Below, in pieces: positions 4,000 to 7,397 of a stretch of 25,338 nt of DNA. The translations under genes were made by a program, and so were the position numbers. The first letter of the stretch is position 1; each line of letters starts with the position of its first letter. Origin of the DNA: a virus. The stretch lies in the UHGV virus genome UHGV-0380352. One strand, written 5' to 3'. Under the pieces are notes generated by a model that had not been told where the DNA came from, searched no databases, and saw only the letters and a list, made by a program, of their open reading frames with translations.

Positions 4000-5163
4000 G
4001 TGAAACAAATGAATAACAAGTATCTTTTTGCACAATATTTAAGAGGGTTGGCTGCACTATCTGTCATGTTTGCGCATTTCGGGACGTCTTTTTTCAATGC
4101 TAACCCAATGCTCTCATCTTTCGTTAATGTTCCGCAAGTTGAAGACCGTTCTTACCCATGGCTTGTACAATTAGTGCCGGTTGACTTTCCTGGATTTATG
4201 GCTGTATTCGGCGTTGCAATATTTTTCATGATCAGCGGATTTGTTATCCCGATGTCAATTGAAAGATATAGTTTTACCACCTTCTTCTCTAAGCGTTTTT
4301 TCAGATTATTCCCTACTTACGCATTTGTTTTTACTCTTAACCTACTTGTTGCTGGCATAGGGTTTGCCATCTACCAAGGCAAAGGGGTTGAGTATGTTTA
4401 TAATTCTACAGACATAATTGGCTCGTATCTCATTGGATTAAATACTTACATTTCTGGAACTAGATGGCTAGACCCTGTCGCATGGACTCTGGGTGTGGAG
4501 ATATTATTTTATGTAGTAGCAGCTATCTATATGAATATCTCTTTCGCAATAAGAAAGGTTAAGGAAGTTAGTCTTTATGATGTCATTATACTGAGCGCTA
4601 TTCTTGATGTAGCGGCAATTAAACTTTCTAAATATTTTGATATAATCAGCAGCACATTCCCTTCCATAAATCTTGGCAGTGTCATTAAAGCTGTTTATCT
4701 GATTTCTTTCATGCTTCTTGGGACGACTTTCTTCCTTCATGCTAAAAAGAGAATTGGCTTACATGCACTAATTTACACCATCCTTATCCAGTATTTTGGA
4801 TTCGTTTATGTAAACATGCATATCCATCAAGCTGGCATGTATGTTGCAATAGTTCCTACTTTTAGCTGGTTTGCCATTACTATACTGGCATTTGCTCTCT
4901 GCTACTCAATAAACGATAAAATTAAAGAGCACAAGTTCGCTGGATTTATGGCTGACATTAGCTACCCGCTGTATCTTTGCCACTCATATATTGGCTATTT
5001 CTTGATGGGGGTAATTATAAGCTTTGGCATCTTGCCAAGATCGCTTGTTGTTTTCATACCATTTCCAGTGGCTATCGGCGTTGCATACCTCATACACAAA
5101 TACGTGGAAATGCCGACGCACAGAATGACTTTCTCAGGAATATTGAAACTCAAAAAGGCATAA
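4000..5163 (+). CDS. Integral-membrane acyltransferase, family 3 (O-antigen/polysaccharide O-acetyltransferase, Oac-like)
   Basis: 387-aa polytopic membrane protein with the hallmark Acyl_transf_3 motifs: N-terminal LRGLAALSVMFAHF (conserved Arg/His in TM1), FFMISGFVIP (FFxISGF) and RFFRLFPTY (RxxRLxP). Strongly AT-rich compared with flanking phage genes. Located between int and tailspike, where P22-like phages carry serotype-conversion genes. Confidence 0.8.
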   Translation: MKQMNNKYLFAQYLRGLAALSVMFAHFGTSFFNANPMLSSFVNVPQVEDRSYPWLVQLVPVDFPGFMAVFGVAIFFMISGFVIPMSIERYSFTTFFSKRFFRLFPTYAFVFTLNLLVAGIGFAIYQGKGVEYVYNSTDIIGSYLIGLNTYISGTRWLDPVAWTLGVEILFYVVAAIYMNISFAIRKVKEVSLYDVIILSAILDVAAIKLSKYFDIISSTFPSINLGSVIKAVYLISFMLLGTTFFLHAKKRIGLHALIYTILIQYFGFVYVNMHIHQAGMYVAIVPTFSWFAITILAFALCYSINDKIKEHKFAGFMADISYPLYLCHSYIGYFLMGVIISFGILPRSLVVFIPFPVAIGVAYLIHKYVEMPTHRMTFSGILKLKKA

Positions 5164-5165
5164 TT

Positions 5166-5188
5166 AAAGGGGCTTGCGCCCCTTTTTT
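5166..5188. terminator. Bidirectional rho-independent terminator between convergent acyltransferase and tailspike genes
   Basis: aaa-GGGGC-ttgc-GCCCC-tttttt: 5-bp GC stem (5169-5173 and 5178-5182) with A-run upstream and T-run downstream; sits exactly between the plus-strand stop at 5163 and the minus-strand stop at 5187-5189. Confidence 0.7.
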
Positions 5189-7397
5189 AGTATCCAACAG
5201 TCTGAACTGCCCCTGACCCAGATGAAGATGATTGAAGTTCCATGGTGTAATAACCATTAAGTGGCTCACCTTCCCAATCAAGGTTAATGCGTAATACATG
5301 GCCATATTTGGTTGCATTTGACTGGGCGATAAACCCTCCAGGCTTATCTATATCTCTCTGTGGCATCCCAGAATATACCTGATTTGCAGTATATGCCTTA
5401 TCAACAGCAGGAGCGCCAATAGAGGCGGTAATTTTAGGCCACGTTCCGGAGCTGTGCAGAACATCTACAGCATACCCGGTAAGCCCGGTTGATGTTCTCC
5501 TGATCAAACATTCAATATACCCACTCCCATGAGATCCGCCAATCGACTTGATAATCAGTTTTGCAGTACCGCAATCCCATGGATTTAAAGTCTGATCCCA
5601 ACATTCAGCCTTTAGGCCGCTAGGCATAGGAAAATCCACGCTGGTTAACACTGCCTCACCTGGCCATACTCCTCCCACAACTATTGGACTCGGTATCCTG
5701 ACACTCAATGTTTCTAAATATCCTCTTCCCCATCCATTATTTGTTTGTCTGGCAAGGTGCTCGTAAATTGGCCTTATTGTCAAAGCCTGAATAAACGCTG
5801 GCTTGGATGCTGACGCATCTGCTGCGTTATAAATACTGATAGTTTTCCATCCCCTACCAATCAGCGTACCAATACGCTTTTGCAAGGCATCAGAGTGATT
5901 ATTAGATCCACGATTTCGTGCTACAGTAACAGTGCTCTGAATTGCGTTATAGTTTGTTTGCACAAAACTATTTTGCTCGGCGAAAGCATAGTATGAAACC
6001 CCTATAGAGGGAGGGACCTCCTGTGGTTCAGAGAAGCAAAATGACAAATTAGATTCATCCAGCCAGCTACCAACAACATCAACTTCTGCTGCCTCTGCAT
6101 CAAGATAGAAACTGTATGACGTTCTAACATATTTTCCAGCATCAAACCCACCAATGATGCCTTGAAGCGTATATGTCTCGTAACCAAATCCCATTGTTAC
6201 ATTGTCAAAAGCATCAAAAAAACCAATCTGATCGCTCTGTTTGTATGGCCATACCGTTATTTCTGTAGATACTGGTCTATAAAACGGAAGCATTCCTCCG
6301 GCCATCATCATTGAACCAATTGCTTCAGCTATTCGTTGATATCCGACAGAGTTGAAGTGAATTGGATCTGATGCGATAGAACCATATGGGATATTGTATG
6401 GTATTTCATTTGCTTCGATATATGCACAACCATATACATGAGCTAAATTTCTGATTTCCTGCCCCCAAATTTGGAACTGTTGAATATTACCATGCTGCTC
6501 ATTACCACCTGCAACTGGCTGAAGAATAATAACCCCCATCCCCCAATCAATGAATCTACGAATGAACTTCTCCATATACGTTAAATACACGTCTATCGTG
6601 GTTGATGTAGAGTCATTTATCGCATACATAATAATTGCAACATCACAATTAGGATTATCCTGCCATGCTAAATATTCAAATCCTTGTTGTGCTGTCTGCC
6701 CGGATACTGCTCTAGTGATAGTTGTTACATTCCCACCGGTACAGATAGAAAGGTATCTTGCGAGCCTTTCTGGATAGGTTACATTAGCACGACGCGTTAA
6801 CCCTGTTCCGTTTGCATCTGTTGAGTTAGGATCCCAACCAAAAGTCTCACTATCTCCCTGACAAAGGATCGATAATCCAGACTTTTTACGAAGATTGAAG
6901 TGAGCCTTGGTAAGAGCATGAATATTTCTGTTTCTATAATCAGCGCTATCTGATGCCAAAGTAGCGTTGCCAAGATTTGTAATGTGCTCTTGAACAGTCT
7001 TCCCATCATCAGTTCCGATTAATAAAGATCCTCCTGATCCAGACAGTTCCTGTCGCAGTTGATCTGGATCATATTTAATTACATTAGGGTAATAAAATTG
7101 CAAACCACCAACAGCATCATACACCGCCATCGAATGGCCTTTCACAGTAACAAACTTGGCAATCTGTCCGTTATATACAGGGTAACCAGCAGCGTTAATG
7201 ATGATTGGTTGCGAAACAGGAACGTGAGAACCATCCTCATTATCCACATAAACCTGAATCTGGTTTTCAGGATTTACAGGGTCAGTGTCAATTTTACCGA
7301 TATAAATTTTGCCATTGGCTACGGCTTTAAAAGAACGCGCCATAGTGAAGAGTTGCGAAGGCATACTCACTACAACATTGGCTGTAATGTCTGTCAT
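5187..7397 (-). CDS. Tailspike protein: P22-type head-binding N-domain fused to an SGNH/GDSL esterase-type domain and a C-terminal domain of unknown fold
   Basis: 736 aa. Residues 1-110 ([40 protein letters not shown]...) match the conserved head-binding domain of P22/Sf6/HK620 tailspikes. Residues about 175-350 carry all four SGNH blocks in canonical order and spacing: GDSET (Ser183), SGQ (Gly233), AINDS (Asn261), DPIH (Asp344/His347). RBS GGAGC 7 nt upstream of the ATG. Last gene of the late operon. Confidence 0.85.

Follow-up and report, generated by a model that had tools for sequence, protein, structure and literature searches.

The region 4000-7397 of the virus genome UHGV-0380352 (25,338 nucleotides (nt), hereafter the window) holds two convergent genes of an Escherichia coli prophage, one for a predicted membrane O-acyltransferase of acyltransferase family 3 (AT3) and the other for a tailspike with an SGNH/GDSL esterase domain. 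Both products have the domains and the intact catalytic motifs of their families, the two genes recur together as a cassette in other prophages, and both are linked to one family of O-antigen gene clusters of the wzm/wzt (ABC-transporter) type. We consider it moderately probable that the pair is a cassette for receptor specificity and receptor conversion of the kind carried by the phages Sf6 and g341c. The original prediction on this DNA had placed an AT3 O-acyltransferase and an esterase-type tailspike tail-to-tail in the region, and this is borne out by the open reading frames (ORFs) and by matches to Pfam and PHROG families; it had further proposed that the two might write and erase acetyl groups on the same receptor.

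The tailspike gene (5187..7397, minus strand) encodes 736 amino acids (aa), in which Pfam recognised a Head_binding domain (PF09008) at aa 1-113 (E = 4e-64) and a Lipase_GDSL_2 domain at aa 181-355 (E = 5e-11). The former is a P22-type head-binding (tail adaptor) domain encoded at 7059..7397, and it also matches the N-terminal domains of the Sf6 and P22 tailspikes in the PDB. The SGNH/GDSL esterase domain, delimited by Pfam and by alignment to aa 178-360 (6318..6866, minus strand), contains the catalytic residues S183 (in GDS), G233, N261, D344 and H347 of the SGNH blocks I, II, III and V, all of which were invariant in an alignment of 16 sequences that included g341c and phage UTK0001. The remainder, aa 361-736 with the stop codon (5187..6317, minus strand), is the C-terminal part of the receptor-binding module and is homologous to the C-terminal parts of B2 gp48 and Moo19 gp82.

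By phmmer against the PDB, tailspike aa 97-725 aligned end-to-end with three solved proteins (9d84, 9lna and 9d80/9d81); 9d84, entered as "Gp48", matched tailspike aa 97-723 over its residues 145-766 (E = 7e-95), and 9d80/9d81 gave E = 6e-83. From size and name, 9d84 is assigned to gp48 of phage B2 (83 kDa) and 9d80/9d81 to gp82 of phage Moo19 (118 kDa). Both of these proteins hydrolyse p-nitrophenyl acetate, and both phages are unable to infect a Shigella flexneri gtr- oacD double mutant, an oacD single knockout having been unobtainable (PMC11654681). A tblastn search of phage records found the same module in the N4-like UTK0001, B2 and Moo19 and in the T7-like GW1, Dev2, SH3-5 and SFPH2, and in g341c, a P22-like phage of Salmonella, the receptor-binding module was 31% identical. 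B2, Moo19, SFPH2, Dev2, GW1 and SH3-5 share the receptor-binding module with the window over its whole length (E = 7e-95 to 6e-83); unlike the window's prophage, phages of the B2/Moo19 type are virulent, have other adaptor domains and carry no conversion gene; their hosts, or prophages resident there (OacD from SfII), supply the acetyl marks that they need. A related activity is known for phage c341, presumably a clear-plaque mutant of g341. The passage of PMC5380687 that cites Iwashita and Kanegasaki 1976 has the tail parts of c341 deacetylating the O-antigen. From its sequence, the window's spike is classed as an esterase-type tailspike with intact catalytic residues, and by analogy with these relatives it is predicted to act as an acetyl esterase on the O-antigen without cleaving the chain. 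The best-known esterase spike, gp63.1 of coliphage G7C, an SGNH protein that deacetylates the O-antigen without depolymerising it and whose phage requires the acetyl for infection, can be regarded as an analogue in function alone: its phage is virulent and N4-like whereas the window's phage is temperate and P22-like, and gp63.1 was not recovered as a sequence relative, with no Escherichia phage among the tblastn hits and no matching PDB entry among the phmmer hits.

The convergent acyltransferase gene (4000/4009..5163, plus strand) encodes 387 aa when read from 4000, or 384 aa from the ATG at 4009, which is the likelier start and the one used in a RefSeq-annotated copy of 99.7% identity. Its sole domain is Acyl_transf_3 (PF01757), found at aa 12-366 of 387 with 83.3 bits (cut-off 31) and E = 2e-23; the protein also matches the PHROG O-acetyltransferase family phrog_3333 (E = 2e-37) and, having no fused SGNH domain, it is an AT3-only enzyme. 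The motifs of the family are present as R15-X10-H26, FFMISG at aa 75-80 (FFxISG) and R99-F-F-R102 (RXXR), and the motif residues are 95-100% conserved across 107 homologues. The R/K-X10-H motif in the first transmembrane helix and the RXXR motif in the first cytoplasmic loop are essential in Oac, OafA and OafB (PMC9558356). A crude Kyte-Doolittle scan gave 8 segments scoring at least 1.6, about ten transmembrane helices being typical of the family. With its domain and its motifs, the predicted acyltransferase looks functional. When the protein was compared with all phage records by tblastn, the sole match was one Halomonas phage, and Sf6 Oac was not recovered as a relative.

The G+C content of the acyltransferase gene is 0.35-0.40, compared with about 0.50 elsewhere in the prophage, as is typical of conversion morons. 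The gene lies between the tailspike gene and int/attP, antiparallel to the late operon, and thereby occupies, with its lower G+C, the lysogenic-conversion slot that holds oac in Sf6, gtrABC in P22, gtrC in BTP1 and gene 15 in g341c. Phase variation of the Dam/OxyR type was considered for the gene and rejected, as the upstream region has only two GATC sites and no promoter-like site.

Directly 5' of the AT3 gene, within a 460-bp AT-rich stretch, lies an ORF for a hydrophobic product of 65 aa (3768..3965, plus strand) that is without RefSeq annotation and matched no Pfam or PHROG family. Homologues with 47-61% aa identity were found in Yersinia, in Cronobacter and in two other E. coli prophages, the C-terminal motif being FWIxDEINN. 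No more than 12 database clusters contain the ORF, and for four of these the longest contig is also that of an AT3 cluster. To judge from this distribution, the 65-aa ORF travels with this AT3 lineage, and it could encode an accessory protein of the AT3-only enzyme. The idea that the spike's SGNH domain might be the transferase partner which the AT3-only enzyme lacks was also considered and rejected: the spike is a late virion protein assembled in the cytoplasm, and such partners work in the lysogen's periplasm.

The 23-nt gap between the two genes is filled by a G+C-rich hairpin on both strands (5166..5185), recognised by its stem and its folding energy. The stem has 8 bp, 5 of them G-C pairs (GGGGC/GCCCC with flanking A/T pairs), and closes a 4-nt loop, and the free energy is -13 to -14 kcal/mol with z ~ -3 on either strand. 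On its 3' side follow T6 on the plus strand and TTT then AATTAT on the minus strand. Terminator-like sites are no more frequent in the region than chance would give (3, the expectation from shuffled sequences being 3.3 +/- 1.9), and the argument for a terminator rests on where the hairpin lies and on the fact that homologous loci conserve it. The Yersinia and Cronobacter cassettes keep the GGGGC/GCCCC stem and flank it with A5-6 and T6, which makes these copies properly bidirectional, and terminators are annotated at the same place in Sf6 and g341c. The hairpin has the sequence features of a good intrinsic terminator for the AT3 transcript; for the tailspike transcript it is a probable but weaker one. 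Of the bidirectional terminator that had been predicted for the pair, the single shared hairpin with its T6 on the plus strand was thus recovered, and the T run on the tailspike side (TTT AATTAT) is weak.

In order to follow the pair outside the window, we compared it with its homologues in other prophages. The closest relatives of the tailspike are in Yersinia enterocolitica and Cronobacter dublinensis, with the receptor-binding module at 81% identity in P22-like prophages of both, and a module 75% identical to that of the window was found in a siphovirus-type Cronobacter prophage (L008) with a tape-measure gene, an NlpC/P60 gene and a Tail_spike_N adaptor. In all the Yersinia, Cronobacter P22-like and siphovirus-type copies a convergent AT3 gene of the same lineage lies 23-32 nt from the spike gene, the identities of receptor-binding module and AT3 to the window being 81/85% in Yersinia, 81/70% in the P22-like prophages of Cronobacter and 75/69% in the siphovirus-type prophage. 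By blastn, the window had a single match of 69% with the loci L008 and L010, which spans exactly 4007-6954, from the start of the AT3 gene to about residue 148 of the spike. Against the siphovirus-type Cronobacter prophage, the extent of the mobile cassette is therefore the AT3 gene, the hairpin and the receptor-binding module from about aa 148. For more distant SGNH modules, of 31-42% identity, the partner AT3 genes are distant to a corresponding degree. These comparisons indicate that the pair has been co-transferred across genera and phage morphotypes, and because of this co-transfer we regard the spike and the AT3 gene as genetically coupled. Searched with the 16-sequence alignment, a viral-contig collection gave 53 confirmed loci; a genome-contig collection, searched with this alignment and with the single protein, gave 600 and 41 pattern matches and no relative confirmed by tblastn, which may be a technical artefact and not a true absence.

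Both genes also lead, independently, to the same kind of O-antigen. Among 5426 complete E. coli genomes the receptor-binding module is present in only two, which belong to one clone (23CRST047/049), and the O-antigen cluster of this clone is of the wzm/wzt type, found by megablast in 6 of the 5426 genomes. In 23CRST047 the cluster (L063 13691-21240) ends, beside gnd, in an AT3 gene of its own, whose 340-aa product is pairwise unrelated to the AT3 of the prophage. For the AT3 the link comes from Salmonella enterica, where a wzm/wzt cluster (L150, AAYIXP010000051.1, 362-6167) ends, beside gnd, in P0071, a homologue of the prophage AT3 at 57%. This Salmonella cluster is collinear with the E. coli cluster, with aa identities of 80% for GT2, 83% for Wzm, 84% for Wzt, 59% for the second glycosyltransferase and 60% for WavE. 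The Salmonella contig is probably O67, because O67 is the sole Salmonella O group reported to use the ABC-transporter route (PMC11294581). A review of E. coli O-antigens allowed no O group to be assigned to the 23CRST047 cluster. With both genes independently linked to one wzm/wzt family, a shared O-polysaccharide of this family is the likely target of spike and AT3. We also observed that in 23CRST047 the colanic-acid cluster (L063 2053-10720) is degraded, with a frameshifted wzc, an inserted IS3 element and most wca genes missing, and that the nucleotidyltransferase gene at the galF position (assigned as galF by position) is a pseudogene.

Such a layout was known before. In Sf6, attP, int, oac (encoding OacA, an AT3-only enzyme), a short terminator and the tailspike gene (gene 14) stand in the order and on the strands seen in the window, and the Sf6 head-binding domain is about 89% identical to that of the window at the DNA level, whereas the Sf6 spike is an endorhamnosidase beta-helix and that of the window is of the esterase type. 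The annotation of Sf6 describes its attP as extremely similar to the HK620 site, which we take to be argW. The variant with an esterase spike already exists in the Salmonella phage g341c, where tailspike gene 14, Rho-independent terminators annotated on both strands, the convergent gene 15 for an O-polysaccharide acetyltransferase, a gtrA remnant and int follow one another. The g341c spike, like that of the window, has a head-binding domain and a homologous SGNH module with conserved catalytic residues. However, its acetyltransferase is a 640-aa AT3-SGNH fusion and an OafB orthologue, whereas that of the window is AT3-only and of another lineage (27% identity), and the hosts and O-antigens differ. 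The C-terminal domain of the g341c acetyltransferase matches PDB entry 6SE1 (E = 1e-132), presumably the SGNH domain of OafB. As a separate observation, the tailspike ORF of g341c (L002 5629-8007, FJ000341) has 792 aa and a hydrophobic C-terminal extension, and in 18 related IMG/VR prophages (L034-L061) it has 705 aa, probably a frameshift difference in one sequence.

In two of the known systems the acetyltransferase works against the phage's own spike. The AT3-only acetyltransferase of Sf6 is a lysogenic-conversion gene product whose mark blocks the spike of Sf6 itself (PMC9558356), and in the P22-like Salmonella prophage BTP1 (GtrC/OafB) an O-antigen acetyltransferase shields the O-antigen of the lysogen from the phage's own spike (PMC9558356; see also PMC4413052). 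The BTP1 spike is a rhamnosidase and its enzyme an AT3-SGNH fusion, in contrast to the esterase-type spike and the AT3-only enzyme of the window. We assume that in BTP1, too, the acetyltransferase gene adjoins the tailspike gene.

On the reading that we favour, whose substrates, acylation positions and exclusion phenotype we infer, the prophage would make a trimeric tailspike late in infection, and the SGNH receptor-binding module of this spike would recognise the O-acetylated O-polysaccharide and remove the acetyl, leaving the chain uncut. In the lysogen the AT3 gene, probably together with the 65-aa ORF, would be expressed from the opposite strand, the hairpin separating the late from the lysogenic transcript. 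In the periplasm, the AT3 product would acylate this same O-polysaccharide at a position that the esterase does not use, and the added acyl would make lysogens poor receptors for their own phage and for its relatives. The two genes would stay and move together because both are specific for one O-antigen type.

A division of labour of this type is suggested by g341c and its host. We take the mark removed by c341 to be the 6-O-acetyl group on galactose (Gal). In the group E1 O-antigen, Gal-6-O-acetyl is written by the host enzyme WbaK, an AT3-only protein borne by the O-antigen cluster, and OafB acetylates rhamnose at O-2/O-3 (PMC9558356). The g341c phage enzyme, an OafB orthologue, and the host WbaK would thus act on different sugars, rhamnose and Gal respectively, which favours different positions in the window's system as well. 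23CRST047 presents the same two-enzyme situation as the host of g341c, with one AT3 in the cluster and another in the prophage. By this analogy, the host probably writes the substrate of the esterase, and the acyl contributed by the prophage would be a second one that blocks. Other prophages with SGNH spikes have gtr glucosylation genes in the slot, which fits a masking modification rather than a role in writing the substrate. Of the two alternatives that the original prediction had left side by side, acetylation at a different position that blocks recognition is the better supported one, though still conjectural, and removal of a needed mark for release of particles the less supported.

Several observations weigh against this reading. 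Consensus scans upstream of the AT3 gene gave no promoter, and the link between the receptor-binding module and an O-antigen type rests on one clonal lineage. An AT3 homologue of 86% identity, with its small ORF, occurs in a Mu-like myovirus prophage (L144-L146, 1968-8050) at the same argW site and with the same integrase type, where the AT3 gene is convergent with ordinary tail-fibre and tail-fibre-assembly genes. Conversely, a 99% identical tailspike is accompanied by an AT3 allele of only 59% identity in inverted orientation (L147 1181-6450; L148, L149; an E. coli prophage at argW), and in two copies of this type an IS3-family element lies between the two genes. The pairing is therefore not obligatory. 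In order to see what usually stands beside P22-like spikes, we selected from IMG/VR the 80 loci whose head-binding domains were most similar, grouped them into clusters according to their receptor-binding domains and looked, in the assessable clusters only, for an AT3 gene within 2.5 kb downstream of the spike. The enrichment of AT3 beside SGNH spikes is weak, with 7/15 clusters against 8/43 for the non-SGNH spikes (Fisher p = 0.045); when P22-like clusters alone are counted, it is 3/4 against 8/43 (p = 0.035). Among the non-SGNH clusters a further 9/43 had gtrB and 26/43 neither gene, and two of the 15 SGNH clusters had gtr. An AT3 gene beside a tailspike gene is thus ordinary, with a suggestive bias toward esterase spikes.

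A second reading has no functional coupling: the AT3 gene would be a generic moron in the standard cargo slot near attP that protects against unrelated phages or host immunity by modifying the O-antigen or some other glycan, the adjacency to the spike reflecting prophage architecture and nothing else. The frequency of AT3 and gtr genes within 2.5 kb downstream of non-esterase P22-like spike types (8/43 and 9/43) is what this reading would expect, as are the 86% homologue in the Mu-like prophage at the same argW site and the fact that AT3 alleles can be swapped under a constant spike. It accounts poorly, on the other hand, for a cassette that moved between podovirus- and siphovirus-type prophages with boundaries enclosing just the two genes, for the parallel divergence of spike and AT3 across genera and for the independent connection of both genes to the same wzm/wzt O-antigen family, and we regard it as rather unlikely. 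Of the coupling that had been predicted, and described as unexamined, the genetic side is supported by the co-transfer of the two genes across genera and morphotypes and by their tie to one O-antigen type; the novelty claimed for it is reduced by the canonical Sf6-type layout, by the AT3 genes beside 8/43 non-esterase spikes and by the pairing already present in g341c.

A true write/erase system would be one in which the AT3 installs the exact acetyl that its own tailspike binds and hydrolyses, so that the receptor on lysogens would be made, or kept up, by the phage itself and the esterase would serve as a receptor-destroying enzyme for release. Phages with esterase spikes do need acetyl marks, and a prophage can supply them: Moo19 and B2 fail on the gtr- oacD mutant, and OacD is a prophage-borne AT3 on SfII (PMC11654681, PMC9558356). 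AT3 genes are also commoner beside SGNH spikes than beside other P22-like spikes, and the mark made by the AT3 homologue resident in the related Salmonella O-antigen cluster could be a natural feature of the receptor. A phage in need of a mark that it alone can write, however, would be unable to infect naive hosts, and part of its progeny would be lost on lysogens. The precedent of g341c speaks for different sugars, other prophages with SGNH spikes have gtr operons in this slot, and the 99% identical spike occurs with the 59% AT3 allele. We consider a write/erase system of this kind unlikely. It is quite improbable that the AT3 and SGNH spike lineages meet on the very same acetyl position of the wzm/wzt O-polysaccharide as a receptor-creating and receptor-destroying pair, with the 65-aa ORF as a perhaps previously unrecognised AT3 partner, and no indication was found of a single acetyl group being the target of both enzymes, as one alternative of the original prediction would have it.

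The cassette sits in a prophage inserted into the E. coli chromosome, to which the window belongs since all 5426 complete E. coli genomes match its first 3.5 kb (mlaA-yfdC-tRNA-Arg). The host gene yfdC (1142-2074) is annotated, together with tRNA-Arg and intS, in the homologous locus of 23CRST047. It is followed by argW, the tRNA-Arg gene (anticodon CCU) that is the attachment site of the prophage (2150..2224, plus strand, by ARAGORN), and by a tyrosine integrase gene of the IntS type (2350..3540, plus strand; Pfam Phage_integrase, Phage_int_M and Arm-DNA-bind_3), whose RefSeq start corresponds to about position 2386 of the window. Beyond the tailspike, the rest of the P22-like virion module was identified by PHROG matches on the minus strand (7562..20789), comprising the gp16, gp20 and gp7 ejection proteins, the needle, head completion, coat and portal proteins and the terminase. 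The tailspike gene closes the late operon, after the gp7, gp20 and gp16 ejection genes (PHROG matches at 7562-11659, and the annotated homologous locus). On the minus strand beyond the terminase are lysis genes, two tRNA genes and nin-region genes, the tRNAs being tRNA-Thr(UGU) and tRNA-Asn(GUU) at 23424-23579 (minus strand), between the lysis and the nin-region genes. With this full run of integrase, virion, lysis and nin-region genes, the P22-like prophage at argW looks intact. Compared with E. coli 23CRST047, the window is 99% identical over 1-7412, and the similarity stops exactly at the start of the tailspike gene.

To our knowledge, the protection of esterase-spike lysogens from re-adsorption has not been studied, and the literature searched yielded no experiments on an esterase spike in combination with the acetyltransferase beside it. 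Esterase spikes are increasingly recognised as common in temperate phages, Klebsiella prophages being an example, and the study of the latter suggested that phages may also compete through acetylation and deacetylation (PMC13123978). What is new here is that the cassette crosses phage morphotypes, that both of its genes link to a rare wzm/wzt O-antigen family and that the 65-aa ORF travels with the AT3. The unit is small and genetically tractable, consisting of the 65-aa ORF, the AT3 gene, the putative terminator and the esterase receptor-binding module, and its natural variants, such as the same spike with the 59% AT3 allele or the AT3 lineage inside an O-antigen cluster, are suited to asking whether a second acyl masks an acetyl-dependent receptor. 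The pair also shows that a receptor-binding module and its conversion gene can pass as one unit between podovirus- and siphovirus-type prophages, which matters for the prediction of host range and serotype conversion from genomes.

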